Both the position numbers and the translations under genes were made by a program. Below are positions 9,391 to 53,897 of a DNA stretch of 64,000 nt, in pieces. Location of the stretch: assembly GCA_028717245.1 (NCBI GenBank), contig JAQUOD010000004.1, positions 65,508 through 129,507 on the forward strand. The letters run 5' to 3'. Each line of letters starts with the position of its first letter. Positions within the stretch are counted from its first letter, which is position 1. The stretch comes from Candidatus Omnitrophota bacterium (GTDB lineage Bacteria; Omnitrophota; Gorgyraeia; Gygaellales; Profunditerraquicolaceae). The notes below the pieces were generated by a model. That model was not told the origin of the DNA and ran no database searches. It worked only from the letters and a program-made list of their open reading frames with translations.

Positions 9391-9490
9391 AGCGGGTGAC
9401 GCGGGAGATGCCTCGAGCCAAATTTGGCGAGAGGCTCATCACGCGGTGAGGACCCGCTACCTCACCAGCGAAAAAAAGACAGATTCATTT
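9391..9490. repeat. Short copy of the GC-rich 'X' element family. It has the outer arms of the 20826-21020 copy with the middle missing, and ends in a GACAGATTCATTT motif.
   Basis: AGCGGGTGACG...ATGCCTCG...GGACCCGCTACCTCACCAGCGAAAAAAAGACAGATTCATTT matches both ends of the 20826-21020 copy. Confidence 0.5.
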
Positions 9491-9502
9491 ACTATGTTAT
9501 CA

Positions 9503-9553
9503 GGGACAGTCCCCTTGGTTTGCTTCGGATTAGCTTTCTACGGGGACAGTCCC
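9503..9553. repeat. REP-like pair of GGGACAGTCCC(C) 5-1-5 palindromes spaced about 27 nt apart, starting 5 nt beyond the folD stop codon.
   Basis: AGGGACAGTCCCCTTGGTTT...TACGGGGACAGTCCCT. The same unit recurs at 18357-18407 and 21103-21154. Confidence 0.6.
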
Positions 9554-9558
9554 TGTTA

Positions 9559-10404
9559 CTATTCTTGTTGTAACTTTGCTGCTTCGACGACGTTACGCAT
9601 CAGCATAGTAACGGTCAGGGGGCCGACACCGCCGGGAACCGGGGTAATATAGGATGCGCGTTTTTCTGCAGCCTCAAATTCCACATCGCCGACGATTTTA
9701 TCAGCCACGCGGTTTATCCCCACATCAATCACCACTGCGCCCTCTTTAATCCATTCGCCTTTAATGAGCCCGGCCCTGCCTACTGCCACAATCAAAACTT
9801 CGGCCTTATTGACGTGCTCCTCTAATTTTTCTGCCTTTGACGTGCCGATATGGCAGACCGTAACCGTAGCAAATTTATCCAATAATAAAAGTGAAAGCGG
9901 CTTACCCACGATTTCGCTGTGGCCTACGACTACCACTTCCTTACCGTATAAATCCAACCCTGTTTCTTTCAATAGCTCCATTACCGCTGCCGGGGTACAA
10001 GGCAATATCTTCGCCTGGCCAAAAACAATCTTACCAATATTCGCCGGGTGCATTCCCTCCACATCTTTATCCGGTGAAATATACTGGCTGATTTTTTTAT
10101 AATCTATTTGGGGCGGAAGCGGCATCTGGATAATAATACCGTTAATAGACTTATCTATATTTAATTTCCAGATAAATTCAGTAAGGGAAACCTCAGTAGT
10201 ATCCGCGCTTAACTTATGGAATTGATATTCTATGCCTAAGCCCTCTGCGTTTTTTTTCTGAGACTTTGCGTAGGCCTCGGCACCGGCGTTATCCCCTACC
10301 TGGATACTGGCTAAAACCGGCTTATTCTTTAAAGAAACTATCTCTTGTTTGATCCCTTCTTTTATCTTCTCTGCTAACGGCTTACCCTCTAATAATTTTG
10401 CCAA
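9559..10404 (-). CDS. folD: Bifunctional methylene-THF dehydrogenase / methenyl-THF cyclohydrolase.
   Basis: MAKLLEGKPLAEKIKEGIKQEI... with FolD-family length and conservation. Confidence 0.9.
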   Translation of the reverse strand: MAKLLEGKPLAEKIKEGIKQEIVSLKNKPVLASIQVGDNAGAEAYAKSQKKNAEGLGIEYQFHKLSADTTEVSLTEFIWKLNIDKSINGIIIQMPLPPQIDYKKISQYISPDKDVEGMHPANIGKIVFGQAKILPCTPAAVMELLKETGLDLYGKEVVVVGHSEIVGKPLSLLLLDKFATVTVCHIGTSKAEKLEEHVNKAEVLIVAVGRAGLIKGEWIKEGAVVIDVGINRVADKIVGDVEFEAAEKRASYITPVPGGVGPLTVTMLMRNVVEAAKLQQE

Positions 10405-10945
10405 CTTTCTCCTCCATCTCCTGTCTTATCCTTTTTACGGTCTTTTCTTTCTGGATTAATTCTTTTCTCACGGCAGTAGCCAGCTTTTTATCGCCCAGCA
10501 TCTTTAGGTTTATCTCGACATTAAAATACGCCGAAGCAAAGGCTGCCTCTAAAAGAATTGCCGCCACTGCCACGTCGCTGATAAGGTTAAGGTTGCCTTT
10601 GGTAATCAGGGGCGGGCATAATTTTATCCCTTCATAAGAAAGCCGCGCTATCATAAAAGGAACATCCAGGGCATCCCGGATATTTTTACTCTGATAGGCG
10701 ACAACGTCTAAATCTACTAAATTTAAAAATTCCTCTCTTAATTTTTCGGATTTCTCTATTATCTTCTTTAACGCGTCTTCATATTTGGCATATTTGGGTT
10801 TTCCTAAGGTAAAATTTACCACCATACTGATTAAAGATGCGCCCAGGCCGGCGTTCAATGCGGCGGCAGAACCGCCTCCGGGAGCGGGAAGTTTAGCGGA
10901 TAGATCGTTTAAGTATCTTTTCAGGCTCAGGTCTTTATAGTTCAT
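10382..10945 (-). CDS. fchA: Cyclodeaminase/cyclohydrolase family protein (FchA/FtcD-like methenyl-THF cyclohydrolase).
   Basis: LPAPGGGSAAALNAGLGASL motif typical of the FTCD_C family. It sits between fhs and folD. Confidence 0.7.
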   Translation of the reverse strand: MNYKDLSLKRYLNDLSAKLPAPGGGSAAALNAGLGASLISMVVNFTLGKPKYAKYEDALKKIIEKSEKLREEFLNLVDLDVVAYQSKNIRDALDVPFMIARLSYEGIKLCPPLITKGNLNLISDVAVAAILLEAAFASAYFNVEINLKMLGDKKLATAVRKELIQKEKTVKRIRQEMEEKVGKIIRG

Positions 10946-12636
10946 GATAATCCGACGATTTCTCCTTTCTCATTCAGGTCAATCTTCTCGCCTACCGGAT
11001 GGCTGGGCAGCCCGGGCATAGTCTGCATATTTGCGCAGAGAGGGTACAAGAATCCTGCGCCGATAGAAGCGCGAATATCTCTTATTGGCAGGATAAAGTT
11101 TCTGGGCCTTCCCTTTAGGTTCGGGTCGTGGGATAAAGAAAGATGAGTTTTAGCCATACATATGGGCAATTTATCCCATCCGCGTTCGTTAAACAATTTA
11201 ATTTTTGCTTGCGCCAAGTCCGCATATTCTACGTCTTTGGCGCCGTAAATTTTAGTAGCAATAATCTTAATTTTCTCCTTAATGGGCGCATCCAGCGTAT
11301 AGAGGAATTTAAATTTCTTAGGCGAATTCGCTGCCTTAATTACTGCCCTGGCTAAATCTGTCCCGCCTTTTGAACCTTTGCTAAAGACTTCACTTACGCA
11401 ACAATCATGGGCGCCAAACCCTAAAGCCTTCTCCTTGACAAAATCTATTTCTTTATCCGTATCGCAGGAAAACCTGTTTATCGCTACTACTACCGGAATG
11501 CCGAATACCTTAACATTCTCTATTTGTTTTTCCAGATTACAGAGACCCTCCCCTATTGCCCTTATATCTTCTTTCTCAAAACAAGTATCTAAGGGCATGC
11601 CGGCGACAACTTTAAATCTTCCGCTGTGCGCCTTTAATGCCCTGATAGAACAAACAATTACTGCGGCATCGGGGATGAGCCCGCTGACCCGGCATTTGAT
11701 ATCAAAAAACTTTTCTGCCCCGCAGTCAGCGCCAAAGCCTGCCTCGGTAACTACATATTCGGAAAACGCCAAAGCAATCTTATCGGCTAATATCGAACTA
11801 TTGCCGTGCGCAATATTAGCAAAAGGCCCTGCGTGCACGAAACAAGGCGTATGCTCAATGGTCTGGATAAGGTTAGGTTTTATGGCATCTCGTAAAAGTA
11901 CGCTCATGCTGCCTGCGGCTTTTAAATCCTGGGCGGTTACCGGCTTATTGTCAAAAGTATCTGCCAAGACAACCCTGCCGATACGTTTACGCAGGTCAGC
12001 TAAACTACTGCTCAGCGCTAATATTGCCATCAGCTCTGAAGCAACGGTAATATCAAAACCAGTATCCCGCGCAATACCGTCTTCTTTTGCGCCTAAGCCG
12101 ATTTTTACGTTCCTCAAGAACCTGTCGCTTATATCTGCTACCCGGCGCCAGTAGATTTTTTCCGGGTCGATATTCAGGCGGTTGCCCTTAAAAACAGAAT
12201 TATCTAAAAACGCTGCTGCCAGATTATTAGCAATACCCACCGCATGCACATCGCCGGTAAAATTCAAATTAAAATCCTCCATGGGCAATACCTGGGAATA
12301 TCCTCCTCCTGCGGCACCGCCCTTTATACCAAAAACAGGGCCTAAGGAAGGCTGCCTTATGCAGGTTGAGGTAAGTTTACCCAACTTGTTTAAAGCCATA
12401 GAAAGGCCGATAGTAGTTACGGTCTTTCCTTCACCCAGCGGCGTAGGAGTGATAGCCGTAACTAAAATATATTTGCCTTTCTTTTTATTTTTGATCTTAT
12501 CCAGGATACCCAGGTCTATCTTGGCAATATTGCGGCCGTAAGGGATAAGGTATTCTTTGCCGATTTTTAATTTAGCGGCTATCTTTTCTATGGGTTCTTT
12601 TCGCGCCTTGCGGGCGATTTCAATATCGGGTAACAT
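10942..12636 (-). CDS. fhs: Formate--tetrahydrofolate ligase.
   Basis: 564 aa with TPTPLGEGKTVTTIGL P-loop and the FTHFS signature. Confidence 0.9.
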   Translation of the reverse strand: MLPDIEIARKARKEPIEKIAAKLKIGKEYLIPYGRNIAKIDLGILDKIKNKKKGKYILVTAITPTPLGEGKTVTTIGLSMALNKLGKLTSTCIRQPSLGPVFGIKGGAAGGGYSQVLPMEDFNLNFTGDVHAVGIANNLAAAFLDNSVFKGNRLNIDPEKIYWRRVADISDRFLRNVKIGLGAKEDGIARDTGFDITVASELMAILALSSSLADLRKRIGRVVLADTFDNKPVTAQDLKAAGSMSVLLRDAIKPNLIQTIEHTPCFVHAGPFANIAHGNSSILADKIALAFSEYVVTEAGFGADCGAEKFFDIKCRVSGLIPDAAVIVCSIRALKAHSGRFKVVAGMPLDTCFEKEDIRAIGEGLCNLEKQIENVKVFGIPVVVAINRFSCDTDKEIDFVKEKALGFGAHDCCVSEVFSKGSKGGTDLARAVIKAANSPKKFKFLYTLDAPIKEKIKIIATKIYGAKDVEYADLAQAKIKLFNERGWDKLPICMAKTHLSLSHDPNLKGRPRNFILPIRDIRASIGAGFLYPLCANMQTMPGLPSHPVGEKIDLNEKGEIVGLS

Positions 12637-12644
12637 AACTATAC

Positions 12645-13025
12645 CTAATAGATAAAACTGCTATCCAGTTCAAACGCGTTTTTGATTAGTTCCAGGCGGG
12701 GATTATCCTGCGCATATAATATAGAGATAACATCAAACCTGGCTTTTTTATCTAACAGATTATTTTCTTTAAGATATGTAAGGGCTGCTTTAGAGATTTG
12801 CCTTTGTTTAAAAGCCGGCACTGCCTCCTGCGGCAGGCCAAACCTATCCGAATGCCTCGTCTTTACTTCCACGAAGCAAAGCGTATCTTTATCAGAAGCT
12901 ATGATATCTATTTCGCCTAATTTTGTTTTATAGTTCCTGGCGAGAATCTTATAACCCTTATCTTTTAACAAGGCCGCGGCCAGTTCTTCCCCTGATTTGC
13001 CTGTAGCTAGATGTTGTTTACGCAC
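12645..13025 (-). CDS. yraN: YraN-family (UPF0102) endonuclease.
   Basis: 126 aa. GEELAAALLKDKGYKILARNYKT...GEIDIIA motif. Confidence 0.75.
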   Translation of the reverse strand: MRKQHLATGKSGEELAAALLKDKGYKILARNYKTKLGEIDIIASDKDTLCFVEVKTRHSDRFGLPQEAVPAFKQRQISKAALTYLKENNLLDKKARFDVISILYAQDNPRLELIKNAFELDSSFIY

Positions 13026-13621: not shown

Positions 13622-13632
13622 TTTATTTCTAG

Positions 13633-14004: not shown

Positions 14005-14739
14005 TTAATTATCTTTTAATAAATCCGGCCTTGATTTTTTGGTAATTTTTAAGGCTTGTTTTTTTCTCCACTGCGCTATTTTTTTATGATTACCTGATAA
14101 AAGGATTGCCGGGACCTTCATGCCTTGATAATTGGCAGGCCTGGTATACTGTGGATACTCCAATAGATTACCCGTAAATGACTCAAAATTCAAGGAATTT
14201 TTATCCCCCAATACACCCGGGATAAGGCGCACTAAGGCATCCACTAAAACCATAGCCGGCAATTCCCCGCCGGTCAAGACATAGTCGCCGATAGAGATCT
14301 CTTCATCCACAAGAGAAAGCCGCACCCTTTCGTCTATGCCTTCATAATGCCCGCAGATTAAAATGAGGTGCTTACATTTGGCCAACTTTTGCGCTACTCT
14401 TTGATTTAATTTCTCACCCCGCGGGCATAATAAAATAACTTTTGTTTTTTTCGTATCGCGTATCGCGTATCGCGTATCGCGTATCTTCGATGCACGACGA
14501 AAAATATCATTCACTGCCCGGAATATGGGCTCTGGGTTTATCACCATGCCTGAGCCGCCGCCAAAAGGCCGGTCATCGACTTTCCTGTGTTTATCCAAAG
14601 TATAATCCCGCAGGTTATGGATGTAAATCTTGACCTTACCTTTATTTTGCGCCCGCTTGAGAATAGATTCATTCAGCACGGGTTCGAACATCTTGGGGAA
14701 TATGGTGAGGATATCTATACGCATCGTATAAGGTATCAA
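14005..14739 (-). CDS. trmD: tRNA (guanine37-N1)-methyltransferase. Carries an in-frame heptamer tandem repeat insertion.
   Basis: [17 protein letters not shown]..., typical TrmD. The (CGTATCG)x4.5 array at 14452-14485 encodes [12 protein letters not shown] in a variable loop. Confidence 0.9.
14452..14485. repeat. Heptamer tandem array (CGTATCG)n inside the trmD coding sequence, in frame.
   Basis: cgtatcgcgtatcgcgtatcgcgtatcgcgtatc, read directly. Confidence 0.85.
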
Positions 14740-14803
14740 AGTATCAAGGTGTCAAGGTATCAAAGTTTTTTCTTTGACACAATGACACCTGACACTATGA
14801 CAC

Positions 14804-14805: not shown

Positions 14806-15973
<1,168 letters not shown>

Positions 15974-15980
<7 letters not shown>

Positions 15981-16969
15981 ATCAGCATGGCATCGCCATA
16001 ACTATAAAACCTGTATTTTTTATCAATAGCTTCCTGATATGCCTTTTTAATCAGTCCCTCGCCGGCAAAGGCGCAGGCTAACATAAACAGGGTAGTACGG
16101 GGAAGATGAAAATTGGTAATTAAAGCATCAGCCGCCTTAAATTTATACCCCGGATAGATAAATAAATCCGTCTCTCCTGCCTCATTACCAGAGGCATAAC
16201 TCTCCAGGGCGCGGCAGGCAGTTGTCCCAACAGCAATTATACGCGCCTTTCTTAAGCGCGCCTGCCTTATGCTCTGGCGCGCCTCTTCACTCACCTGAAA
16301 AAACTCTTTATCCATTTTATGAACGCTAATGTCCTCTGTTTTCACTGGCTTAAACGTAGAATAGTTTATATGCAAGGTAATATAAGCGATATCCACGCCA
16401 ATAGCTTTAATTTTATTTATTAATTCTTGAGTAAAATGTAACCCCGCCGTCGGAGAAGCAATAGAGCCTTCTTCTTTGGCATATACGGTCTGGTAATAAA
16501 TACTATCTGAATCTTCCGGTGGCCTTTTAATATAAGGCGGTAGCGGCATCCTGCCTAAATTATAAACCGTATCTATATCCGCGTCAGAAAAAGTAACTTC
16601 ATTTTTGGCGCTGATTTGCGCGGAAATTTTTCCTCCGTTAAAAACTATTTTTTCTTTAAGCCGCAATCGATGAGGCCTGATGAGTGCCTCAAAGGTTAAG
16701 CCGGATTTTTGCCTTAAGAGTAATAGCTCTACTCTCCCGCCGGTAGAGCGCGAGCCGATTAAACGGCTGGGTGTAACCTTAGTGTTATTTAATACCAAGA
16801 GGTCACCCGCCTGTAAATAATCTCTTATATCCTTAAAAATGCGGTGTTCGATAGTGGCTCGTTTACGGTCTAAAACTAAAAGCCGGGCCGTATCCCTCTC
16901 TTCTAAGGGGTATTGCGCGATTAATTCTTTGGGTAAGGGGTAATCGAAATCCGATAATTGCATCATCAC
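15974..16969 (-). CDS. queA: S-adenosylmethionine:tRNA ribosyltransferase-isomerase.
   Basis: FDYPLPKELIAQYPLEERDTARLLVL, typical QueA. Confidence 0.9.
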
Positions 16970-18344: not shown

Positions 18345-18356
18345 CTTTGCCCGAAA

Positions 18357-18407
18357 GGGACTGTCCCCGTAGATATCGAACCCGTTAGAAACCAAGGGGA
18401 CTGTCCC
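18357..18407. repeat. REP-like GGGACTGTCCCC...GGGGACTGTCCC pair, inverted relative to the other two copies, 7 nt beyond the queH stop.
   Basis: gggactgtccccgtagatatcgaacccgttagaaaccaaggggactgtccc. Confidence 0.6.
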
Positions 18408-18414
18408 TGCCACA

Positions 18415-18990: not shown

Positions 18991-19037
18991 TTTAATACTA
19001 TGTAAAAGCAAGCCAATCCACCCGTAAAAATAAGCTC

Positions 19038-19137: not shown

Positions 19138-19833
19138 TTATTTAAAAATCCATTCCCTAAGGCGTATCTTCTTGCCTATATATTGCTTAACCACCTTCAC
19201 CACAGCCAATTTCATCGGATTTTCGCCTTTCTTCAAATCATAGTTAACCGCGCCTAACACTAAATCCGCAATACCAATCAAGTCATCTTTTTCAGAATCT
19301 CTGGGTTCAACGGTTTTTATAGTATTTCGTTTAGTACTTAAATTTATCTCCCGCTTAATATACTCGCAGATATTATCATCCCTCATCCTGACTTTTTTAT
19401 CTAGATAAACAACCGCTTCATTTAATATGCTAGCATTTTCTAAGAGCAATTCTTTGGTAAAGAAATTATAGGCTCGAAACATTCCTCTTGATTTAGCTAT
19501 TTTGATTTGTTTTTCCGTTAAATCTTTAATTTTCTTAATGTCATCGTCAAAATACCTCAATTCTAACTTCTCATTTGAAACTGCCAAGGCCCGAAAATAA
19601 ATATGCTGCCTCAAGATTTCATCTAAGACCTCACAGGCTACCCTTGAGCGTTTAGAAGAAAAATAATGTATTTCTTTAAAATGGAATTCCTTCTGATAAT
19701 TATGTTTTTGCCTTATTCGTTTTATAATTTCGTAAAGCGGCTCTCTATCCTTTACAAACAAAAGGCCGACAACAAACTTTCCCGTAGTACCGACTACGCC
19801 GCTCTCATCCTGATAAACAAAATGGCTCCTCAA
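19138..19833 (-). CDS. DUF3800-family protein with the conserved N-terminal DES motif. AT-rich and probably horizontally acquired.
   Basis: MRSHFVYQDESGVVG... N-terminus and ...DLIGIADLVLGA C-terminal motif. Codon usage is visibly more AT-rich than in the flanking genes. Confidence 0.6.
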   Translation of the reverse strand: MRSHFVYQDESGVVGTTGKFVVGLLFVKDREPLYEIIKRIRQKHNYQKEFHFKEIHYFSSKRSRVACEVLDEILRQHIYFRALAVSNEKLELRYFDDDIKKIKDLTEKQIKIAKSRGMFRAYNFFTKELLLENASILNEAVVYLDKKVRMRDDNICEYIKREINLSTKRNTIKTVEPRDSEKDDLIGIADLVLGAVNYDLKKGENPMKLAVVKVVKQYIGKKIRLREWIFK

Positions 19834-19894
19834 TCTTACTCCTTATACACACTCGCTTGAAAACCGTCTTAAGTTTTATAATCTTTTACTCGGT

Positions 19895-20068
19895 TTTACG
19901 GGTCCTGTCTTGGCTTGTTTTCTCGCAGGGACGCTCGTTTTGCCCAGCGTGCAAAACTTCGCTCGACTTTCGGCCTCGCTCTCACCGATAATTAATAGCG
20001 GGTGAACCGTGCCCGCTCGGCCTGCAAACGCCCTGCTCGAAACCAAGCCAATCCATCCGTAAAATACA
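19895..20068. mobile_element. GC-rich X element, MITE-like with imperfect TIRs TTTTACGG...CCGTAAAA. It is about 96% identical to 53500-53665 over roughly 145 nt.
   Basis: Direct comparison of the two loci. A terminal fragment recurs at 19005-19030. Confidence 0.6.
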
Positions 20069-20082
20069 TAACAACCCTCTAT

Positions 20083-20766
20083 CTATTCACCAACTTTAGT
20101 TTCTTTAGGCAATGGCGAATCACTAACTGATTCAGGTGGTACCGGTTTTAGTTTATCAAACCAATCAATGTAAGGTGTTATAGATCTAATTAACCCTACT
20201 CCAGGGAGAGCTTTACCAGTAGCTCTGTTCGGAATGTAAGCTGTTACAAAACCCACCAGTTCTGAAAAACGATCGAATGTTGGTCCGCCACTCACACCAT
20301 TTATAACTACACCATCTACTAAATATGCTTCTCTTTCAGCTAGCCATGCACTTACGCGACCAGAAAAAAAACAAAGTTGAGTTGGATATACCGAAGGGAA
20401 ACCACACCACCCCAACTCAACTCCTGCTTTTTTATGGCTTTTTTTCTCAAATAATGGTAAAACCTCATCTGGTAATGGCAGTTGACCTTTTGGAAGACGA
20501 ATTAAAGCCGAATCAGTTGCGTCGTCCCAGTGGATAGACCGATTACCTTCTTTTAATAGAATTGTTTTGCCTGTTATGTGATGTTTAACTTTTATGGGTT
20601 GATCCCATTCCACAGCGTAATTGACAACATGCCATGCTGTAGCGATACCTATTACTTTTTCTCCTTCGGAAGAAGCGACAAGAAAACCTGTTCCACTTCC
20701 TGCTGGAGTACTTATATAAACAACGTGATTCTGCAAGTTTTCCAATACCTCATACAATTCTTTCAC
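20083..20766 (-). CDS. Trypsin-like (S1 family) serine peptidase, cytoplasmic-looking and AT-rich.
   Basis: His in TAWHVV, Asp in DSALIRL, Ser in GVSGGP (GDSGGP-like). Codon usage differs from neighbours. Confidence 0.65.
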   Translation of the reverse strand: MKELYEVLENLQNHVVYISTPAGSGTGFLVASSEGEKVIGIATAWHVVNYAVEWDQPIKVKHHITGKTILLKEGNRSIHWDDATDSALIRLPKGQLPLPDEVLPLFEKKSHKKAGVELGWCGFPSVYPTQLCFFSGRVSAWLAEREAYLVDGVVINGVSGGPTFDRFSELVGFVTAYIPNRATGKALPGVGLIRSITPYIDWFDKLKPVPPESVSDSPLPKETKVGE

Positions 20767-20825
20767 CGTATTATCCTCCTATCTAATTAGTGTGAATTTG
20801 GTAGTTTCGAGCTTGCGTTAGCATT

Positions 20826-21020
20826 TAGCGGGTGACGAGGCATGTTTTGAGCAGCATCTTGAAAATTCGAGCGGGCACGGTTGCCCCGCTAAATACGAAG
20901 CCGGGCAGAGCGAGAATTTTCACCGAAGTGCAGTGAGCCACGCTGGGGCGAACAAACGGTGCTGCGAAAAATATGCCTCGGCAGGACCCGCTACCTCGCA
21001 AGCGAGAAAAGCTGTAGTAA
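20826..21020. mobile_element. Diverged long copy of the X element, in the opposite orientation to 19895-20068.
   Basis: CGAGCGGGCACGGTTGCCCCGCT...GAGCGAG... aligns with the reverse complement of the X core. Its ends match the 9391-9490 short copy. Confidence 0.5.
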
Positions 21021-33892: not shown

Positions 33893-33960
33893 TTACTTTG
33901 TGTCAAAGTATCAATGTGTCAGAGTGTCAAAGAAAAAACTTTGATACCTTGACACTTTGA
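33893..33960. repeat. Junction palindrome (GTGTCAAAG / GTATCAAT)n-A6-(CTTTGATAC)n between the GH57 gene and uppS.
   Basis: gtgtcaaagtatcaatgtgtcagagtgtcaaag aaaaaa ctttgataccttgacactttgatact. Confidence 0.75.
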
Positions 33961-33964
33961 TACT

Positions 33965-37681: not shown

Positions 37682-39040
<1,359 letters not shown>

Positions 39041-40290: not shown

Positions 40291-42057
40291 TTATTTTTTA
40301 CTTTTACCAATAAGCTTCTGGAAATCTTCTTTTTTAGGCACTGTCTTAGAGCCGAATACCTCCTGGTTATCCAAAAGATAAGTCGGCCCGAACATAATCC
40401 CTAATTCCTGATTCAGGCGGATATTTTCTTTTAGGAGCGTTTTACCTTCCGGCCCTTGAGCGCAACTCTTTATTTTCTGCGTATCCGCGCTGTTCTCCAG
40501 GCAATCCTGCCACCAGGAGCTGCTAGGATTCTTAGAACGGCAACTGATATAATCCCAAAACCCTTGAGGGTAATATTTTTGCACGCATACGCTACGCAAG
40601 GCCTCCTCAACTTCAGGGGCTCCTTTGGAGGCATCAAAATTATCTTTCTGCTCCACCACCAGAAAATGTATTGCCGGGCTAAAATCTTTTACTACCGCTA
40701 ATAGCTGGGGGGCATCTTTATCATACAAACTTAAAAAGAAGTCTAATTTACCTTTTAACTTTTCCCTCTTTAAAAAATAGGAGACGCCGCCGAAGTGGGG
40801 CTTGAGCAGATAAAAATCGCTTTTCATTTCCAGATTTTCTCTCAAATTATCAAAACCTTTTTCCTGTCTTACCTCTTTACCCAAAAGATAAACCGGCAAA
40901 GAATTAATTCCAAAATCTTTAATCAGTTTGGCAGCTTTGGCGCCGGGATAATACAAATAAGAAACAGACAGCCCCGGGAATAAGGCCTTTAAATTTTTAA
41001 TTACCCCCTCAGTATCGCATACCCTGCATTGCTTAGGTATAATCACCGAAAGGGGAATCTTTGATACCTCGGAGAACTGACAGTAAGACTTAAGCGTCCC
41101 GGCGGCCTGGCATATGCCTATGCGGGAAGCCTGCCTGCAATTATTATCCGAAAAACAATGGGGCAGGATAGAAAGTATCTGCGGGTCATCGCTTATCTTG
41201 TCTGAAAGGCGCAGCTCTTCTACTTTATGGCCCGTAATTTTGTTTTCCTTAAGCGTAAGCGTTAATTTTCCCAGCCTGCGGCCCTGCCAGGAAGGCCTCA
41301 GGAGTAAAGTGCGGCCTATTTTAGTGGAAGGCTCTTCTTTGGCGCGGTTATGGCCCACAATAAGTATATCTATGCCGATAGTATCCTTGAGCAAATTTAA
41401 ATCTTCGGCCTCGCCCTGGTGGCTTAAGAGTATAATAATATCCGCGTTATTTTTCTGCAAATCCGCTACTGCCTCTTTCACCGCCGCTTTGGGCTCCGTA
41501 AAATCTAACCCTCCTGCCTTCTGCCTGGCAGTAAGGCCGGTTACCCCGATTATCCCGACTTTTACGCCGGCGAACTCTTTGATCAGATAAGGCCTGAATA
41601 GTGTTTCTTTTGCTCCGGAAGTAGTAGAGGTAGAGATATTACAGGAGACTAAAGGTAACTTGTCCCTGCCGGCGCTTTCTTCTAAAAACTCCCGGCCGAA
41701 ATTAAACTCATCATCCCCCACCGCTAAGGCATCGTATTTCATCATCTCCATGCTTTTTAGGTTCACCAATGCCCGCTGCATATCCAGCGGCACATTCTGG
41801 GTATATTCATCCATGAGGCCGCCGGCAATAAATCCGCCTGAATCCAAAAGCAGGGTATTAGGGTTATCTTTTCTTAACTTTTTAATCAATGCGGCCCTGC
41901 GGGCAATGCCCCCGTCAGGCTCTTTAGGACAGTTGCAGGGATAAAGCATAGAATGCGTCTCGCCGGTATAAAGGAGAGTGATTTCTTTGGCATAAGCAAA
42001 ATTAAATATATTGGCCAACAACCAATAACCAACAACCAATAACTCCAATCTCTTCAT
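40291..42057 (-). CDS. Secreted metallophosphoesterase / 5'-nucleotidase-family protein with a C-terminal Cys-rich thioredoxin-like region.
   Basis: Signal peptide. ITLLYTGETHSML resembles the 5'-nucleotidase N-terminal metallophosphatase motif. Confidence 0.45.
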   Translation of the reverse strand: MKRLELLVVGYWLLANIFNFAYAKEITLLYTGETHSMLYPCNCPKEPDGGIARRAALIKKLRKDNPNTLLLDSGGFIAGGLMDEYTQNVPLDMQRALVNLKSMEMMKYDALAVGDDEFNFGREFLEESAGRDKLPLVSCNISTSTTSGAKETLFRPYLIKEFAGVKVGIIGVTGLTARQKAGGLDFTEPKAAVKEAVADLQKNNADIIILLSHQGEAEDLNLLKDTIGIDILIVGHNRAKEEPSTKIGRTLLLRPSWQGRRLGKLTLTLKENKITGHKVEELRLSDKISDDPQILSILPHCFSDNNCRQASRIGICQAAGTLKSYCQFSEVSKIPLSVIIPKQCRVCDTEGVIKNLKALFPGLSVSYLYYPGAKAAKLIKDFGINSLPVYLLGKEVRQEKGFDNLRENLEMKSDFYLLKPHFGGVSYFLKREKLKGKLDFFLSLYDKDAPQLLAVVKDFSPAIHFLVVEQKDNFDASKGAPEVEEALRSVCVQKYYPQGFWDYISCRSKNPSSSWWQDCLENSADTQKIKSCAQGPEGKTLLKENIRLNQELGIMFGPTYLLDNQEVFGSKTVPKKEDFQKLIGKSKK

Positions 42058-44810: not shown

Positions 44811-44916
44811 AGAGTTCCTTTCGTTATTGAGTTACTTGAGTTATTGAGTTACTTGAGTTTGCTAGACCAACTGCAAAACTCAAAAGACCCTATAAACTCA
44901 ACAAACTCTAAAAACT
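44811..44916. repeat. Long imperfect palindrome of (TATTGAGTT / TACTTGAGTT) words and their complements at the clpP-aminotransferase junction.
   Basis: cgttattgagttacttgagttattgagttacttgagttt...aaaactcaaaagaccctataaactcaacaaactc. Confidence 0.8.
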
Positions 44917-46403: not shown

Positions 46404-46464
46404 TTATCCCTCAACATTCAAACATTCAAAACATTTTAACATTCAAACATTCAAACATTAGCTG
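46404..46464. repeat. ACATTCAAAC-family repeat at the lptB-tig junction.
   Basis: caacattcaaacattcaaaacattttaacattcaaacattcaaacatta. Confidence 0.8.
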
Positions 46465-47187: not shown

Positions 47188-48115
47188 TCATACCCTCCGC
47201 GGAATAAATAACTAATCTCGGTTTGCCTGAAAGAGTAATCTTCCTGTCTAACGCGGTGTAAGTCGCTTCGTCGCTGTAGGAAATGTTTTCGCCCTGGCTG
47301 ATCTTTACGTTGCCGCGCGCCACAATCTTGTCTATCTTGCTGCCCATAGCGGCCATGCCTGCCTGGCCTGCGGAGATATCTTTGCCAGCGTCTGTGCCGC
47401 CGAAATAAACATCCATCTTATCGCTCTCAATCAGGGCATCCTGGGTATCTACCTTTACATTATTGCTGAAGGTAGCGATATTCTTCCCGTAATCTATCTC
47501 CAGGGGGCCATCGCAGGTAATGACAATCTTTTTTTGCCCGGCCGGCTCCTGGGCCTTAGCGTCAACGCTGGGATTGATATTTACCGTAACATCTTTTTCC
47601 AGGCTCACCTTTTTTAAGTCCGGTTCGCCGCTTGCGCCGCTGGCAGTGGTCACCATATTGCCCCTTTCTATGCTCACCATATCCTTGGTACTCACCAGGC
47701 GGTTTTTCCTGTCCCAATCCAGAGAATCCGTAGTCAGTTTTGCGCCGGTAGAAGTAGTGATGATGACATTCTCTTCCAGATGCACCTTGCCGTCTGCCTT
47801 ATCAAAATCGCCCTTGTCAGCGGTAAGCCTGATATCCTCTTTTTCGCCGTAAAGGTTACCGACTACGCTCTTGAGTTTTACTATGTTGTCAAATATATCC
47901 GCGGATTTTCCCGAAAGGTCCCAGCTGCGCTTGCCTTTTTCGCCAAAGCTGGCCAGGGAAAACTCATTAATCTGCTGGTCAGAGCCCGGAGCATTTTCTT
48001 CCTGGGCAACTAAGCTGTAAGCTGTAAGCTGTAAGCTGTAAGTAAAGATAAAAAAGAAAAATAAAATAATCTTAAGAATACCTGATTTATGACACCTGAC
48101 TTGTGACTCTGCCAT
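47168..48115 (-). CDS. lptA: LptA/OstA-family LPS transport protein. The (GTAAGCT)n repeat encodes part of the signal-peptide region.
   Basis: N-terminal hydrophobic segment, OstA-like beta-rich body. Position matches kdsC-lptA-lptB synteny. Confidence 0.55.
   Translation of the reverse strand: MAESQVRCHKSGILKIILFFFFIFTYSLQLTAYSLVAQEENAPGSDQQINEFSLASFGEKGKRSWDLSGKSADIFDNIVKLKSVVGNLYGEKEDIRLTADKGDFDKADGKVHLEENVIITTSTGAKLTTDSLDWDRKNRLVSTKDMVSIERGNMVTTASGASGEPDLKKVSLEKDVTVNINPSVDAKAQEPAGQKKIVITCDGPLEIDYGKNIATFSNNVKVDTQDALIESDKMDVYFGGTDAGKDISAGQAGMAAMGSKIDKIVARGNVKISQGENISYSDEATYTALDRKITLSGKPRLVIYSAEGMNASLGN
47992..48022. repeat. (AAGCTGT)x4.5 heptamer array inside the lptA 5' coding region, encoding QLTAYSL.
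   Basis: aagctgtaagctgtaagctgtaagctgtaag. Confidence 0.85.
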
Positions 48116-48658: not shown

Positions 48659-48826
48659 ACTCTATAATTGTATAATTGCACCAGGTGCCGAGCCAATCTC
48701 GTACCAGGTGCGAAACTAATCTTGTACCTGTCCCTTCTTTCTCTTGCTAACGGTACACACGCCGCCTCAGGGGACAGGTACAATCTCAAATTTGCACCAG
48801 GTGCCCGATTGGATTTGCACCTGGTG
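48659..48826. promoter_or_regulatory. Complex palindromic intergenic region. It has four GCACC-W-GGTGC-type 5-1-5 palindromes and a central GTACCTGTCCC...GGGACAGGTAC 11-bp inverted repeat.
   Basis: tgcaccaggtgc...gtaccaggtgcg...gtacctgtccc(36 nt)gggacaggtac...gcaccaggtgcc...gcacctggtgc. Confidence 0.45.
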
Positions 48827-49789
48827 CTAAACTAAGCCGGCTTTTAAAAGGTCCTGTATATCCAATAAACCTACTGGACGTTTATTTTTATCTACGACCG
48901 GCAGCTCATCTATCTTTTTCTCCTGTAATATGCGGCTGGCCTCTATTGCCAGCATCTGCGGGGAAACCGCAATCGGATTTTTAGTCATTGCATCCTTCAC
49001 CTGGCGTTTAGCTAAACTCAGGTCTTTTTCCAGATGGCGGCGTAAGTCTCCGTCAGTAAAGATACCGGTGAGCTGCTTATTTTTATTTATCACCGAGGCG
49101 CTGCCTGCGCGTGCCCTAGTGATCCTGAATAGAACCTCTGAAATTTTCATCTCTTCCCTGACTATGGGATTGGCATCGCCCTTACGCATAATATCCTCTA
49201 CTTTTAAGAGCAGCTTTCTGCCCAATAAGCCCCCCGGGTGATAAAAGGCAAAATCTTTTTCTTTAAAACCTTTTAAATCCAGAAGACAGACTGCCAGGGC
49301 ATCGGCCATGGCCAGCATCGCCGTCGTAGAAGTTGTAGGCGCAAGGCCTAAGGGACAGGCCTCTTTTTTTACAGCGGTATTTAAGACTGCATCCGCATAA
49401 CGGCCAAGCAGGGATTTGGTATTGCCGGTAATGGCGATTATCTGCGTGCCTATCTTCTTTAATAAAGGCAGTAATTTCTTAATCTCCTCTGTCTCTCCGC
49501 TGTTAGATAAAATAATCACTACATCTTCTTCGGCAACCCGGCCCAGGTCCCCGTGTATGGCTTCCGCAGAATGCAGAAATAAACTCGGGGTCCCGGTCGA
49601 AGAGAGGGTAGCGGATAATTTTTGGCCGATAATACCGGCCTTACCCATTCCGGTAACTACCACCCTGCCTTTGGAGCGTAAAATAAATTGGACTGCCTTT
49701 TTAAAATCCGTATTAATATTCTTTTTTAAATCGCTTACTGCCCCGGCCTCGATATCTAAAACCTGCCTGGCGCGTTTGATAATATTCAT
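48827..49789 (-). CDS. kdsD: Arabinose-5-phosphate isomerase (SIS + CBS).
   Basis: SIS domain GMGKAGIIGQK, C-terminal tandem CBS. Confidence 0.85.
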   Translation of the reverse strand: MNIIKRARQVLDIEAGAVSDLKKNINTDFKKAVQFILRSKGRVVVTGMGKAGIIGQKLSATLSSTGTPSLFLHSAEAIHGDLGRVAEEDVVIILSNSGETEEIKKLLPLLKKIGTQIIAITGNTKSLLGRYADAVLNTAVKKEACPLGLAPTTSTTAMLAMADALAVCLLDLKGFKEKDFAFYHPGGLLGRKLLLKVEDIMRKGDANPIVREEMKISEVLFRITRARAGSASVINKNKQLTGIFTDGDLRRHLEKDLSLAKRQVKDAMTKNPIAVSPQMLAIEASRILQEKKIDELPVVDKNKRPVGLLDIQDLLKAGLV

Positions 49790-49837
49790 AGGGCTTCCTC
49801 TTAATCCGCCGTAGGCGGATAAGTTCAGCCATATAAC

Positions 49838-50674
49838 TTATGTCGTACTTCGTACTCCATAAGTTATGGCTTCACTTATTTTCTTGATTTGCCGTAAGAG
49901 TTTTTCTAAATCCTTTAGACTAATCATATTCGGCCCGTCGCAGGGAGCATTATCCGGCTTCGGGTGTACTTCTAAAAACAAACCGTCACAGCCAAAACCA
50001 ACCGCAGCGCGCGAAAGCCCGGCCACAAATTCCCGTTGTCCGCCGGAGCATCTACCCTTACCCCCGGGAAGCTGCACGCTATGCGTGGCATCATAAATAA
50101 CCGGATAACCCATCTGGCGTATAATACTTAGGCTCCTGAAATCCGAGACTAAATTATTATAACCAAAACACACGCCCCGCTCGGTAATCAGGATATTTTT
50201 ATTCCCCGTAGATTCTATTTTTTTGATGATGGGCAGAATATCCCAGGGCGCCAGGAATTGGCCTTTCTTGATATTTACGGCTTTGCCTGTCCTGGCTGTT
50301 GCCACCACAATATCCGTCTGGCGGCATAAGAATGCCGGGATCTGTATTATATCCAAAACCTTGGCTGCTTCAACGATGTCCTTGCGACAATGGATATCGC
50401 TTAATACGGGGATGCGTAATTTTTGCTTCACTTTATTCAGGGTATCCAGGCCCTTCTTTATTCCCGGGCCGCGGTAAGATTCTATTGACAAACGGTTAGC
50501 TTTATCAAAACTGGATTTAAAGATAAAAGGTATGCTTAATTTTTCAGTAATATCCTTTATCCTCTTGGCAGTATCCAGGCAGAGTGTTTCTGACTCAATT
50601 ACGCAAGGCCCGGCAATCAAAACTAACGGGTTTTTATCACCTATGCGGATATTTTTTACGTTAATCTGGCGCAT
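49838..50674 (-). CDS. kdsA: 3-deoxy-8-phosphooctulonate synthase.
   Basis: VLIAGPCVIESE and KASFDKANR motifs. Confidence 0.9.
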   Translation of the reverse strand: MRQINVKNIRIGDKNPLVLIAGPCVIESETLCLDTAKRIKDITEKLSIPFIFKSSFDKANRLSIESYRGPGIKKGLDTLNKVKQKLRIPVLSDIHCRKDIVEAAKVLDIIQIPAFLCRQTDIVVATARTGKAVNIKKGQFLAPWDILPIIKKIESTGNKNILITERGVCFGYNNLVSDFRSLSIIRQMGYPVIYDATHSVQLPGGKGRCSGGQREFVAGLSRAAVGFGCDGLFLEVHPKPDNAPCDGPNMISLKDLEKLLRQIKKISEAITYGVRSTT

Positions 50675-51414
50675 TATATTTTTTCCCTCTGCAGGTATTC
50701 TCTGACTTTTTCTAAATCCTGCGGCGTATCTACGCCGATAGTCTCGTATTTTGTCTCAATGACTTTGATGCGAAAGCCCTCCTCCAGGACCCGCAATTGT
50801 TCCAGCCGCTCTATTTTTTCCAGGTTAGAGACCGGCAGATTTTTATAGGTAAAAAGAAAATCTTTGGTGTAGCCATATAAACCGATGTGCTTGTAATATA
50901 CGGGCGAAGCCGCTTCGGAACCTTGGGCAAGATAGGGAATGACTGACCTCGAAAAGTATAGGGCAAAATTATTTTTGTCCACCACCACCTTGACCACATG
51001 GGGGTCGTTCAACTCCTGGGGGTTTTCTATTTTTTTCATAATGGTAGCCATGGAAATTTTACGGTCATCGAGGAGCGACTGCGCCAGGGTATCAATCATC
51101 GTAGGATGTATCAAAGGCTCATCGCCCTGAATATTGATTACTATCTTCACCTCTATGGGGTTTATCACCTCGATGATCCTGTCCGTTCCCGATACATGGC
51201 CTTTTGCCGTAAAGGCGACCTTAGCGCCGAATTCTCTGGCTGCATCGGCAACGCGTTCGTCGTCGCAGGCAATGATTAAATCCTCTAAAAGCAGGGATTG
51301 TTTCGCCCGTTCCCAGACGTGCTGGATCATAGGTTTTCCCGATATATCCGCCAGGACCTTGCCTTCAAACCTGGTAGAAGAATACCTCGCCGGGATTATA
51401 CCGATAATATCCAT
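50674..51414 (-). CDS. kdsB: 3-deoxy-manno-octulosonate cytidylyltransferase.
   Basis: IIPARYSSTRFEGK N-terminus. Confidence 0.9.
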   Translation of the reverse strand: MDIIGIIPARYSSTRFEGKVLADISGKPMIQHVWERAKQSLLLEDLIIACDDERVADAAREFGAKVAFTAKGHVSGTDRIIEVINPIEVKIVINIQGDEPLIHPTMIDTLAQSLLDDRKISMATIMKKIENPQELNDPHVVKVVVDKNNFALYFSRSVIPYLAQGSEAASPVYYKHIGLYGYTKDFLFTYKNLPVSNLEKIERLEQLRVLEEGFRIKVIETKYETIGVDTPQDLEKVREYLQREKI

Positions 51415-52437
51415 CTATCTTATCCTCTCTGATAGCTCTTTTCTGGAGGCAACCGCCGTGCCTAATTTGCCCACGACAATACCGGCGGCAAAATTGGCGA
51501 TATGCGCTGCTTCAAGCTTGCTTGCGCCGCAAGCAAGCGCCACGGTAAATGTTGCTATTACGGTATCGCCTGCTCCTGAAACATCAAAAACCTCCTGAGC
51601 CACCGTCGGAATATGTTGATTTTTCCCTTTTTCAAAAAGCCACATCCCGTTCTCGCCAAGCGTAATCAAGAGGCTTTCTAACTCTAAATGCCCCAGGATT
51701 GCTTCGCCGGCCTTAATAATATCATTATGGGTGAGCAATTCTTCTTTATAAATTTTAAACTTATTGTGGGCGTCCTTCATTTTTAGGTATCTAACGGCAT
51801 TCTCGGTTTCTTTACGGTTAGGGGTAATACATGTAGCTTTAAAATAACAATCGAAATTATCCTCCTTGGGATCAATAGTTATTATTTTTTCTAACCTATT
51901 GGCTTCTTTGATAATAGTTTCAATCAAATTTCTATCAAGGAGGCCCTTCCCATAGTCTTCAACTATGACTGCATCAAAATCCTTTAAATTACCTGATATG
52001 TAACTACGCAGCTTATTGTCGGTTTCTCTTTTGATATTATGCACGTGCTCCCAATCAACCCTGACTACCTGCTGATGCCCGGCGATAATCCTGGTTTTAA
52101 GGGTCGTTTCTCTACCGTTTTCTAACATTACCCCTGACGCATCAATCCTGCGGTCCTTAAGTTCATTTAAAAGCCTTTTTGAAATCTCAGGGCTCCTGTC
52201 GCCTATAACTCCGCATAAGCTAACCTTACCCCCCAGCGCGCAGATGTTGTTTGCAACATTAGCGGCTCCGCCGGGTGAGTATTTTCTTTCTCTTGCCCAT
52301 ACAACCGGCACAGGTGCTTCCGGAGAAACCCTGTCGACGCCGCCATAGATATATTGGTCAAGAATCAAATCCCCTACTACTAAAATATTGGCCTTAGAAA
52401 ATTTAGAAATTATATTTTTTAAACTGCCTAATTTCAT
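51415..52437 (-). CDS. hldA: D-glycero-beta-D-manno-heptose 7-phosphate kinase (RfaE domain I / HldA-like, PfkB family).
   Basis: ILVVGDLILDQYIYGGVDRVSPEAPVPVV, with the PfkB GAGD motif near the C-terminus. Confidence 0.75.
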   Translation of the reverse strand: MKLGSLKNIISKFSKANILVVGDLILDQYIYGGVDRVSPEAPVPVVWARERKYSPGGAANVANNICALGGKVSLCGVIGDRSPEISKRLLNELKDRRIDASGVMLENGRETTLKTRIIAGHQQVVRVDWEHVHNIKRETDNKLRSYISGNLKDFDAVIVEDYGKGLLDRNLIETIIKEANRLEKIITIDPKEDNFDCYFKATCITPNRKETENAVRYLKMKDAHNKFKIYKEELLTHNDIIKAGEAILGHLELESLLITLGENGMWLFEKGKNQHIPTVAQEVFDVSGAGDTVIATFTVALACGASKLEAAHIANFAAGIVVGKLGTAVASRKELSERIR

Positions 52438-52490
52438 TTTTTACCCGCTAACATTTAAACTTTCAAACTTTCAAACATTTTAACAGACAC
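52438..52490. repeat. ACATTTAAAC / TTTCAAAC leader repeat at the DHS-like-hldA junction.
   Basis: ctaacatttaaactttcaaactttcaaacattttaac. Confidence 0.75.
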
Positions 52491-52508
52491 AGCATTACTC
52501 ATAGCTTT

Positions 52509-53438
52509 CTAAATTTTCTCTATTACCGCCTGCGCCAACAAAGGCAGCATTATCTCATGGTGGCCGATAATATAATACCCCTCGCCGCCTGCTTGAGTAG
52601 GCCGGTGAACCACATTCTGGCTGGGGCGGTAATGGTATATCATATCAAAATTTGCCGTCGTAAAATCCTTTACCTTATCCCCCAGGTTCCTGGCTAAATT
52701 CAGGGCCTTTAAGAATACCTCCGGTAATATCACCGCGGAACCGAAATTTAAAACTACTCCGCCCTGATTAAGGCCGCGGATATTTCCGACGAGAGAACGA
52801 AAATCCCTCAAACTGCCCTCGCCGGTTGAGCTGGCATCAAAAGAAGGATGCTGATGTATGATATCCGTGCCAATAGCAACAAAGACATAAACAGGAACCT
52901 TGTTTTTATAAGCCTGATAAATAATGCTTAAATCCTTATGGGGCAATTTCACGGCGCTGATTTTACGCGCCACTGCCTCGCCTAAGCCCAGGCCATCCCT
53001 CACTCCTTCTTTTATCGCGCTATTGAGGAAATCGGCAGTCTCTTTACCCATTCCGAAACGGCCGTCTTTTAAATTATCGGCTACGTCCTCGGAGGTTTTA
53101 CCCTGTAAGGCAATCTCGAAATCATGGATTATACCTGCGCCGTTTAAAACAATACAGCTGATTATTTTCTTTTTTAGCAGTTCAATGACCACAGGGCCAA
53201 GGCCGCATTTGATGACATGGGCGCCGGCCATAAAAATAACTGTTTTATTTTTCTTATGCGCCCTGACTATAGCGTTAACGACAGCGCGTATCTCCTTGGC
53301 TTTTAAGATATTAGGCAAGGAGCCGAAGAAACTTGAAAAGCTCCTTTTAGGCGCAGGCGTCTGGGCAAAATCCTGCCGCTTAACCCTGCTCTTCCTTGAC
53401 TTCAGCGAATATGTCTTTATCTTATTTATATTAATCAT
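52509..53438 (-). CDS. Deoxyhypusine synthase-like (DS family) protein. Tentative.
   Basis: The AGAHVIKCGLGPVVIELLKKKIISCIVLNGAGIIHDFEIAL pattern resembles the DHS AGAMV...VDVLVTTGANLTHDLIEA core. Basic N-terminal extension. Confidence 0.4.
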   Translation of the reverse strand: MININKIKTYSLKSRKSRVKRQDFAQTPAPKRSFSSFFGSLPNILKAKEIRAVVNAIVRAHKKNKTVIFMAGAHVIKCGLGPVVIELLKKKIISCIVLNGAGIIHDFEIALQGKTSEDVADNLKDGRFGMGKETADFLNSAIKEGVRDGLGLGEAVARKISAVKLPHKDLSIIYQAYKNKVPVYVFVAIGTDIIHQHPSFDASSTGEGSLRDFRSLVGNIRGLNQGGVVLNFGSAVILPEVFLKALNLARNLGDKVKDFTTANFDMIYHYRPSQNVVHRPTQAGGEGYYIIGHHEIMLPLLAQAVIEKI

Positions 53439-53499
53439 AGAGACTTATAATTTTAGCATAAATCCTGGTTAAATCAACTATATTTAGCTATTGAGCGTC

Positions 53500-53665
53500 T
53501 GTCTTGTCTTGTTTCTCGCAGGGACGCTCGTTTTGCCCAGCGTGCAAAACTTCGCTCGACTTTCGGCCTCGCTCTCACCGATAATTTAATAGCGGGTGAA
53601 CCGTGCCCGCTCGGCCTGCAAACGCCCTGCTCGAAATCAAGCCAAGCCATCCGCTAAATATACAT
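53500..53665. mobile_element. X element copy, near-identical to 19895-20068.
   Basis: About 145 nt at roughly 96% identity with 19908-20050. Confidence 0.6.
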
Positions 53666-53676
53666 CTGTCAACTTA

Positions 53677-53897
53677 CAAATGAATCTGGCAGTTTTCGAG
53701 CGAATGGAGGTTTTAGCCAAAGCAGCTTGAGTGAACGAGGGCATCCGAACGCGGAAGCATTCGGACAGCGAGGATGTTTGAGCCCGTCCTGGCGAAAGCC
53801 GACGGGCGAGTTCCGCAGCTGCCGAGTTCACGAAAGACCTTTGGCGTGCCCGATAGGGCAAAACCGACTTGAGCGAGAAAATTGACAGATTCATTTG
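53677..53897. mobile_element. GC-rich X-family element bounded by perfect 12-bp terminal inverted repeats CAAATGAATCTG / CAGATTCATTTG. It is oriented head-to-head with 53500-53665.
   Basis: TIRs read directly. The interior shares TTCGAGCG and GAGCGAGAAAATT motifs with other X copies and contains several GC hairpins, e.g. GCCCGTC-ctggcgaaagcc-GACGGGC. Confidence 0.55.

Follow-up and report, generated by a model that had tools for sequence, protein, structure and literature searches.

The window analysed here is a stretch of 64,000 nucleotides (nt) of a Candidatus Omnitrophota chromosome, in whose numbering all element coordinates are given. Between its genes lie copies of a GC-rich, structured element of ~170 nt, called X in the following, and one copy of a second structured element of ~220 nt, called E. 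Essentially all genes of the window (~62) are co-oriented on the minus strand, which is unusually strict over 64 kb, and GC skew is negative throughout (1-64000). A Pfam scan of these ~62 open reading frames (ORFs) reveals a Wood-Ljungdahl/folate cluster (ACS/CODH, FTHFS, FolD and MTHFR), queuosine genes, RuvB, IF-2, NusA, aminoacyl-tRNA synthetases, and isoprenoid and lipopolysaccharide genes. It finds no transposase or integrase among them, in line with a preliminary description of the window that had listed no transposase; no tRNA or tmRNA was detected in a scan of the window. The sole clearly accessory genes encode a DUF3800 protein and a trypsin-like serine protease (19138-20766); they are located between QueH and RuvB and are interleaved with an X fragment and X copies B and C. 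The repeats had also been thought to frame an accessory island. Instead, the region from 21 to 53 kb is made of housekeeping genes (IF-2, NusA, aminoacyl-tRNA synthetases, isoprenoid and lipopolysaccharide genes), and only the trypsin-like gene at 20083-20766 is bracketed, by copies B and C.

The preliminary description had pointed to five GC-rich stretches with stable hairpins, and both properties are real: their GC content is 0.55-0.62 for a window mean of ~0.44, and they fold far better than shuffled sequences (z from -3.9 to -8.2). Their limits had to be redrawn, as a covariance model of X, named R1, places the copies at 9388-9458, 19897-20064, 20824-20992 and 53491-53658. In total, the window holds three full X copies of ~170 nt, one internally deleted mini copy and one fragment of 25 nt. 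Copy B, at 19897-20064(-), has an interior of type II and scores 155.8 bits with R1; it sits between two genes, 64 nt upstream of the DUF3800 gene and 19 nt downstream of the trypsin-like one. It is closed by TTTTACGG...CCGTAAAA (19895-20068), the imperfect terminal inverted repeats (TIRs) noticed earlier. Copy C, at 20824-20992(+), has a type I interior (161.7 bits), is antisense to its flanking genes and has its closest relative in another metagenome-assembled genome (MAG), at locus L053 (85%). Copy D, at 53491-53658(-), is again of type II (156.8 bits). The opposite strands of the full window copies reach only ~15 bits with R1.

Copies B and D are 95.8% identical across 168 nt, including two 75-nt blocks, as had been estimated (~96%); the identity is 99% in the interior and 76% in the outer rod, and the flanks of the two copies are unrelated. 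Copy C, correctly recognized before as inverted and diverged, is the reverse complement of B and D at ~65% identity. With B and D so alike within 64 kb, one could think of a local segmental duplication, or of a chance similarity without wider meaning. This fallback reading is refuted, and we regard its probability as negligible: the B and D flanks are unrelated, 47 homologous loci exist in other genomes and their covariation, described below, is far above controls.

The further copies were found with the pattern GAGCGGGCACGGTTNNCCCGCT, a 22-mer with 20 specified bases common to B, C and D, in a scan of one genome per GTDB species (596 Gb). It returned 52 loci, which on inspection are 47 homologues of the whole ~170-nt element and 5 chance matches; the similarity is thus not accidental. 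The 47 true loci (individual loci and contigs carry L numbers below) come from ~35 MAGs, nearly all Candidatus Omnitrophota, with up to 6 X loci from one MAG. Candidatus Omnitrophota or Omnitrophica is the name given in 31 of the 47 records, and the other 16 are mostly automatically labelled third-party MAGs. The model R1 was built from a trimmed 29-sequence alignment (A2), in which compensatory changes were plain to see, with a hand-written, tested structure. Over the loci it yields 56 matches, including 5 further full-length copies missed by the pattern, with ~105-182 bits for sense strands against ~15 bits for antisense strands. The core also reads GAGCGGGCA[C/U/A]GGUU, with 0-3 mismatches, in 8 copies that the model and not the pattern detected; its conservation therefore does not stem from the choice of pattern. 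The two interior subtypes, I and II, are each conserved across different MAGs.

A metagenome scan anchored on TGT recovered mostly distant phyla (at most 71% identity). The nearest relative, L054, whose TGT is 65% identical, has 3 X copies within 6 kb, and X does not occur in the remaining 79 TGT loci (~900 kb). X is also absent from viral, phage and plasmid collections. Rfam 15 gives 0 matches at gathering score over the window and nothing relevant on the elements at E <= 10, and its HEARO and IS605-orfB motif models do not match them, nor do those of the DUF3800 motifs, 6S RNA and ribozymes. Finally, no description of the element was found in the searchable literature, queried by phylum, motif and exact core sequence. 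Nothing in Rfam 15, annotated phage and plasmid records or the searchable literature describes it.

The sense strand of X folds into a long rod that is closed by the two ends of the element and terminates in a three-way junction. Helix P1, found at the base of all full copies, is the pairing of these two ends and is what had been described as TIRs. Inside P1 an asymmetric loop places UG(A/G) opposite ..CAGGA, after which P2 and P2b extend the rod; a CGAG/CGAG module follows P2b, and P3 then enters the junction. From the GGCGAGCC motif, we take the CGAG/CGAG (CGAGC/GCGAG) modules to be tandem sheared G.A pairs. The junction arm P4a-P4 contains a second CGAGC/GCGAG module, an invariant 8-nt bulge GGGCANGG and the hairpin P5, whose stem UUNNCC/GGNNAG covaries. 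A near-invariant internal loop, GAGCGGGCANGGUU / AGAGCGA, is present in one arm. In arm P6 a third purine-purine module is swapped for U-A pairs in some copies, and letters 2 and 6 of the hairpin loop C(A/U)CGC(U/A)GGG covary.

Comparison of the copies confirms this fold. Across a 56-sequence alignment, 88.6% of helix cells hold standard pairs, against 34-44% when the partners are slid by 1-3 columns; double-sided changes affect 46 of the 50 pairs, and none of 500 shuffles reaches the observed values. The terminal stem changes in concert between copies, from GAACGGG/CCCGTTC to TTTTGTGG/CCACAAAA, for instance. The sense strand is the more stable one in 46 of 48 copies, by -7.7 kcal/mol on average, and the conserved purine-rich motifs all lie on it. 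G.U does not exceed A.C in helix cells (51 and 62, respectively). Of the two natures first proposed, a mobile element of MITE type (miniature inverted-repeat transposable element) or a structured non-coding RNA (ncRNA), a conserved fold on one strand is therefore strongly supported; the first is taken up below.

Several other assignments were rejected on the way. An alternative core hairpin, GCGGG/CCCGC, is not kept in copy c of L054 while UUNNCC/GGNNAG covaries; the conserved bulge is not the partner of the P6 loop, whose positions covary with each other; and the sequence of the P1/P2 loop is off consensus for a K-turn. X does not code for protein either: no open frame is kept, and lengths are evenly spread modulo 3.

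Some relatives depart from the standard element. Variants of 189-225 nt have an extra hairpin-forming insertion in P6 (L009:858-1082, L052:1708-1932, L024:1759-1961 and L027:4728-4916). A shorter, divergent variant of ~77 bits occurs at L040:3980-4138, L045:459-617 and L047:3850-4008; its closing rod is rich in AU, and the tandem G.A module at P3 is missing. The three MAGs, two of them labelled Saccharibacteria, share the site of this variant, between uvrB and a 117-aa gene of the Nitro_FeMo-Co family, and it may be a single-copy form.

Such a fold invites the reading of X and E as genes whose products are structured ncRNAs acting in trans (a scaffold of a ribonucleoprotein, or RNP, a protein sponge or a ribozyme) with many paralogous copies. 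The sense RNA would then be the product, and the variable closing rod would merely hold the three-way-junction core together. The very strong covariation, the invariant junction and loop nucleotides and the systematically greater stability of the sense strand speak for it, as does the interchange of CGAGC/GCGAG modules with Watson-Crick pairs in P6. So do the two interior subtypes, each kept across different MAGs, the syntenic position of the 77-bit variant between the UvrB and 117-aa genes in three MAGs, and the presence of X beside the L28 gene (see below) in three MAGs. On the other side, the lack of G.U excess is unusual for a selected RNA, no Rfam model matches even at E <= 10, and truncated and mini copies are present.

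The genomic setting also bears on this reading. Copies are wedged 1-100 nt from the flanking ORFs, often within 1-70 nt, and gaps of 1-20 nt leave no space for a promoter or terminator. Promoter and terminator consensus scans of the window copies give no signal above shuffles; the 5' flanks are rich in T and the 3' flanks in A, which simply extends the palindrome. Orientation is random relative to operons: with respect to co-directional flanking genes, 19 copies are sense and 12 antisense (p = 0.28), and all four combinations of neighbour and element orientation occur. For 55 copies, the genes closest by are housekeeping genes without relation to one another, recurrence being limited to a few apparently orthologous sites; one X pair sits between trpF and trpB. 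With these points against it, we consider a family of trans-acting RNA genes possible, though doubtful.

Other roles in gene expression were discarded. A cis-regulatory leader (riboswitch or attenuator) does not fit the unrelated neighbours and the four orientations, and an intrinsic terminator or promoter does not fit the silent scans. Copy B lies upstream of DUF3800, yet X is not a DUF3800-associated RNA motif, as there is no Rfam match; no recurrent DUF3800 neighbour of X is seen elsewhere among the matches listed.

At one recurrent site, X lies ~100 nt from a small conserved gene, probably that of ribosomal protein L28, in three MAGs (L010:7158-7322, L031:1-163 and L029:1-88). The 3' end of X points toward the gene in L010 and L031, and the 5' end in L029. 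This suggests either an in-situ inversion between the rod arms or repeated insertion at one site.

The remaining two parts of X in the window are incomplete. Copy A, at 9388-9458(+), is a mini X (22.5 bits with R1, E 0.0012, cmsearch with filters off) that retains P1, P2, P2b, the tandem G.A module and a capped P3. It lacks 104 model positions, which are the three-way-junction interior, and its common sequence with copy C is limited to the two ends of C. Directly after it, at 9459-9490(+), motif scan, blastn and flanks locate the 3' half of an E-type outer rod (..AGCGAAAAAAAGACAGATTCATTT) whose 5' partner is absent. The stretch 9391-9490, once listed as a short copy, thus combines a genuine mini X, its interior deleted, with a piece of something else. 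The fragment at 19005-19029(-), between the QueH and DUF3800 genes, reads TTTTACGGGTGGATTGGCTTGCTTT, which in X forms the 5' strands of both P1 and P2; blastn aligns it to X with 92% identity along 25 nt.

Element E, at 53677-53897(+), had been counted as another copy of the same element. It represents a separate family, sharing with X the outer-rod module only (UUUCGAGC...GCGAGAAA..GACAGAUUCAUUU), with a fold z of -8.2 and a perfect 12-bp closing stem. The perfect 12-bp TIRs assigned to it are confirmed as an inverted repeat, CAAATGAATCTG / CAGATTCATTTG. Full-length homologues exist in L038, L025 and L021 (65-76% identity); the closing stem covaries, with a compensatory change in 25 of 71 predicted pairs in an alignment of four sequences only. 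The overlap of E with the copy A stretch (9391-9490) is limited to the 3' tail, where the end motif GACAGATTCATTT recurs; a motif scan locates it at 9478-9490 and 53884-53896, and not at 9472-9484 and 53886-53897 as first given. A 90-aa ORF at E, 53637-53909(-), has no Pfam match and is probably spurious.

The E-type outer rod reads AAUGAAUCUGGC..UUUCGAGCGAAUG on its 5' side and GAGCGAGAAAA..GACAGAUUCAUUU on its 3' side. In L046 and, twice, in L020 it encloses a complete X, and a shortened form surrounds copy C of the window. There its 5' half, 20800-20817(+), GGTAGTTTCGAGCTTGCG, pairs with the 3' half, 20997-21017(+), CGCAAGCGAGAAAAGCTGTAG, in the minimum free energy fold. L009 keeps the 5' half only. 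The E-type outer rod can hold either an E interior or a whole X. Because the rod encloses X copies and half of it trails copy A, what had been taken for five copies of one family is, on sequence grounds, best described as a superfamily of nested modules with two related families. The kinship through the rod module stands; the single family does not, and a sixth piece, the 25-nt fragment, adds to the count.

Additional copies, one of the tests proposed for both the mobile-element and the ncRNA alternative, are abundant across the phylum. A classical MITE would have TIRs recognized in trans by a DDE transposase, insert with a target-site duplication (TSD) and carry an irrelevant interior; small size, terminal inverted repeats, many copies, intergenic location and the absence of a transposase inside all suit it. 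However, no flanking direct repeat of at least 3 nt exceeds chance in 50 full copies (k = 3-8, 64 boundary offsets). The terminal stem covaries where a fixed transposase-binding sequence would be expected, and the interior is the best conserved part. No insertion sequence (IS) with X-like ends was found in the window, among the matches listed for 83 neighbours of copies or in ~1.3 Mb of loci. A related transposase is likewise absent from the window and, among the matches listed, from ~60 related loci. The classical MITE reading is largely refuted, and we judge it very improbable.

The copies nevertheless bear marks of exchange within genomes. For 17 of the 25 copies having a sibling in the data, the nearest relative is a sibling in the same genome. 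Such pairs have interiors 94-99% identical and outer rods 57-79% identical that remain paired; in L006 and L050 the identity is 0.99 inside and 0.57 outside. From the alignments, the simplest reading would be gene conversion among dispersed copies that rarely reaches the element edges, and an exchange of interior modules is an alternative explanation. In addition, five contigs end inside a copy (L003, L005, L028, L031 and L051). Random orientation, tight wedging, fragments and mini copies, contig ends inside copies and intragenomic homogenisation altogether point to dispersed repeats acting at the DNA level rather than to ordinary small RNA genes.

Adjacent elements are arranged in a non-random manner. 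Among 11 pairs of X/E neighbours no more than 2.5 kb apart, ten are oriented with 5' end toward 5' end (p ~8e-6). Five of these head-to-head pairs are separated by -5 to 78 nt, such as D and E, 18 nt apart; the other five enclose one or two genes (0.8-1.9 kb). All genes inside pairs are accessory-like or have no assigned function: a trypsin-like protease, DUF5677 and six ORFs without Pfam match. Genes outside the pairs are mostly housekeeping. In the window, the trypsin-like serine protease gene, 20083-20766(-) (Pfam Trypsin_2), is held in this way between B(-) and C(+), as cargo and not as a part of the repeat. Its homologues are scattered over many phyla, and one adjoins a phage-type integrase (L136). 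On the four other contigs with its closest homologues, no X flanks the gene.

This geometry can be read in a different manner, with the fold used as single-stranded DNA (ssDNA) or a cruciform: a recognition structure for a recombinase or a Y1 transposase (RAYT or IS200-IS605-like) encoded elsewhere, the head-to-head pairs being the two ends of cassette-like units with accessory genes. Helices with essentially Watson-Crick pairs only, G.U being about as frequent as A.C, are expected if DNA duplex and hairpins are both kept. Tandem sheared G.A pairs are stable in DNA too, which we count in its favour. The IS200/IS605, IS110 and REP/RAYT systems move without TSD, and the absence of TSDs here agrees with them. 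The ten facing pairs, with their short spacers or accessory genes, and the opposite orientations at what seems the same site (L010/L031 vs L029) fit as well. Against it, no Y1 transposase, TnpB, IS110-type protein or serine/tyrosine recombinase appears beside ~60 copies among the matches listed; no Y1-transposase family is among the 25 Pfam families listed (107 matched) for the 83 neighbours, which include one Phage_integrase match. Unlike IS200/IS605, X shows no bias relative to gene, hence probably replication, direction (19:12). The protease homologues on other contigs lack X, the viral, phage and plasmid collections contain no match, and in size and with its three-way junction X far exceeds REP and typical attC sites. 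On balance we find this reading unlikely.

In comparison with known repeats, X and E appear closest in kind to REP/BIME/REPIN and to ERIC/Correia-type repeats, while being larger and far more elaborate. Like the RAYT-mobilised REP/BIME/REPIN of Proteobacteria, they are intergenic palindromic multicopy repeats found in both orientations, with frequent inverted pairs, mosaic clusters, compensatory hairpins, no TSD and, for X and E by our reading, operon co-transcription. Unlike the 20-40-nt REP hairpin, X measures 160-225 nt and combines a three-way junction with internal loops that are invariant; its conservation extends over a phylum and not over a species group, and no RAYT gene is seen among the matches listed. 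REPINs are described as two inverted REPs with a spacer between them (PMC3337134). The pairs seen here differ from that arrangement, being two complete, already palindromic elements set 5'-to-5'.

The general features of ERIC- and Correia-type elements have been described (PMC3184786, PMC2229807). ERIC (Enterobacteriaceae) and Correia (Neisseria) resemble X as imperfect palindromes of ~100-170 bp in transcribed intergenic regions, without a transposase of their own and with size variants through internal deletion or insertion. In contrast to them, X lacks a TSD, be it TA or another, and has a terminal stem that varies and covaries; its conservation lies in the interior and not at the ends, and its fold is branched and strand-specific.

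HEARO/IscB, TnpB omega RNAs and IS110 bridge/seek RNAs are, like X, structured, covarying and multicopy at 150-250 nt, with some copies partnerless; among IS110-type RNAs, ssr9 of ISPpu9 is an example of an orphan copy (PMC12288879). By contrast, no IscB, TnpB or IS110 gene lies beside the X copies among the matches listed, and an unpaired, variable guide segment is missing from X, where the part that varies is a base-paired rod. With IS200/IS605 derivatives (PATE/omega RNA) X shares the lack of TSD. It differs from them in ends that pair together, in the orientation ratio of 19:12 and in having no tnpA or tnpB neighbour among the matches listed.

Integron attC sites are imperfect palindromes of variable sequence and conserved structure, with internal loops; they act as folded single strands and delimit single accessory genes. 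X has no RYYYAAC / GTTRRRY core sites, its termini being UUUAGCGGG...CCCGCUAAA. Moreover, gene-flanking X elements are inverted and not direct, there is no array and no integrase in the window, and X copies are also located inside housekeeping operons. Size, branched fold, conserved interior and phylum-wide reach set X and E apart from the REP, ERIC and Correia kinds, and there is a real chance that they are something more.

We therefore favour, tentatively, the reading of X and E as a non-autonomous, structured repeat superfamily specific to Omnitrophota, with all its parts taken jointly: spread and homogenisation at the DNA level, co-transcription with operons, binding of a host factor at the loops and head-to-head pairs as boundary modules around acquired genes. 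Copies would be made, inverted and homogenised as DNA, by gene conversion among themselves and by mobilisation in trans through an enzyme. Since there is no room for promoters or terminators of their own, X and E would be included in the transcripts of neighbouring operons. The invariant purine-rich loops may form a putative binding platform for a conserved host factor, and the head-to-head pairs may flank recently acquired genes as modules for boundary formation, processing or insulation. Anatomy, covariation, distribution and genomic behaviour of the elements are demonstrated, and the origin of the copies and what binds them belong to the inferred part. We rank this structured repeat superfamily first, trans-acting ncRNA genes second and an ssDNA or recombination element third.

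Several observations weigh against the structured-repeat account. The conserved loops and G.A modules are strand-specific, yet operons would transcribe ~40% of the copies in antisense; hence a role as purely co-transcribed RNA cannot apply to all of them. No mobilising enzyme, TSD or empty site in a close relative was found, and the mobility of X and E is something we infer. The long-term, phylum-wide conservation of the interior exceeds that of usual selfish intergenic repeats and looks like that of a functional RNA. Finally, seemingly orthologous sites in different species, such as the one upstream of the L28 gene, suggest stable inheritance and not turnover.

A bolder view would make of them a new structure-delimited gene-cassette system, in which accessory genes are marked and mobilised by paired X and E; a phylum-wide RNP or ribozyme class with tens of copies would be no less novel. 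In the cassette case, a dedicated enzyme would read the folded RNA or ssDNA, and the solitary copies in operons would be empty or decayed sites. Proposals of such novelty we hold to be rather improbable.

The window contains further repeats. A second, small one consists of two GGGAC(A/T)(G/C)TCCC palindromes ~40 nt apart, with copies 85-94% alike at 9501-9554, 18356-18409, 21040-21091 and 21103-21155, where it adjoins X copies A and C and the DUF2905/QueH junction. In other loci the motif occurs at background frequency, and the repeat looks genome-specific and REP/REPIN-like. Many gene junctions carry short tandem repeats with 7-9-nt units (TAAGCTG, AACATTCA, ATTGAGTTC, GTATCAAG and others), at 14726-14803, 15940-15984, 29011-29062, 33899-33964 and 38955-39037, and also at 44812-44916, 46413-46459, 48011-48042, 52441-52486 and 63150-63187. 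Identical units recur at distant junctions, and similar heptamers are present in the related contig L134 (5540-5580). Two intergenic palindromic structures lie outside X and E, at 6489-6563 (AGGGACGGTTCTC.../...GAGAACCGTCCCT) and 48678-48827 (an array of inverted GCACCAGGTGCC units). Among the genes, a 588-aa ORF at 40291-42057(-) has no Pfam match at E <= 1e-6, and one window protein is identical to the NCBI entry 'MAG: serine protease [Candidatus Omnitrophica bacterium]'.

Very little is known of the genome biology of Omnitrophota, bacteria that are uncultivated, ultra-small and probably dependent on hosts. With 46 of 50 pairs covarying, invariant loops, ~35 MAGs and no Rfam entry, this repeat family is a candidate new class of structured RNA or DNA. 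It accounts for contig breaks in Omnitrophota MAGs and can be used as a lineage marker. Should head-to-head pairs indeed mark the limits of acquired genes, they would reveal in what way these reduced genomes take in foreign DNA and insulate it.

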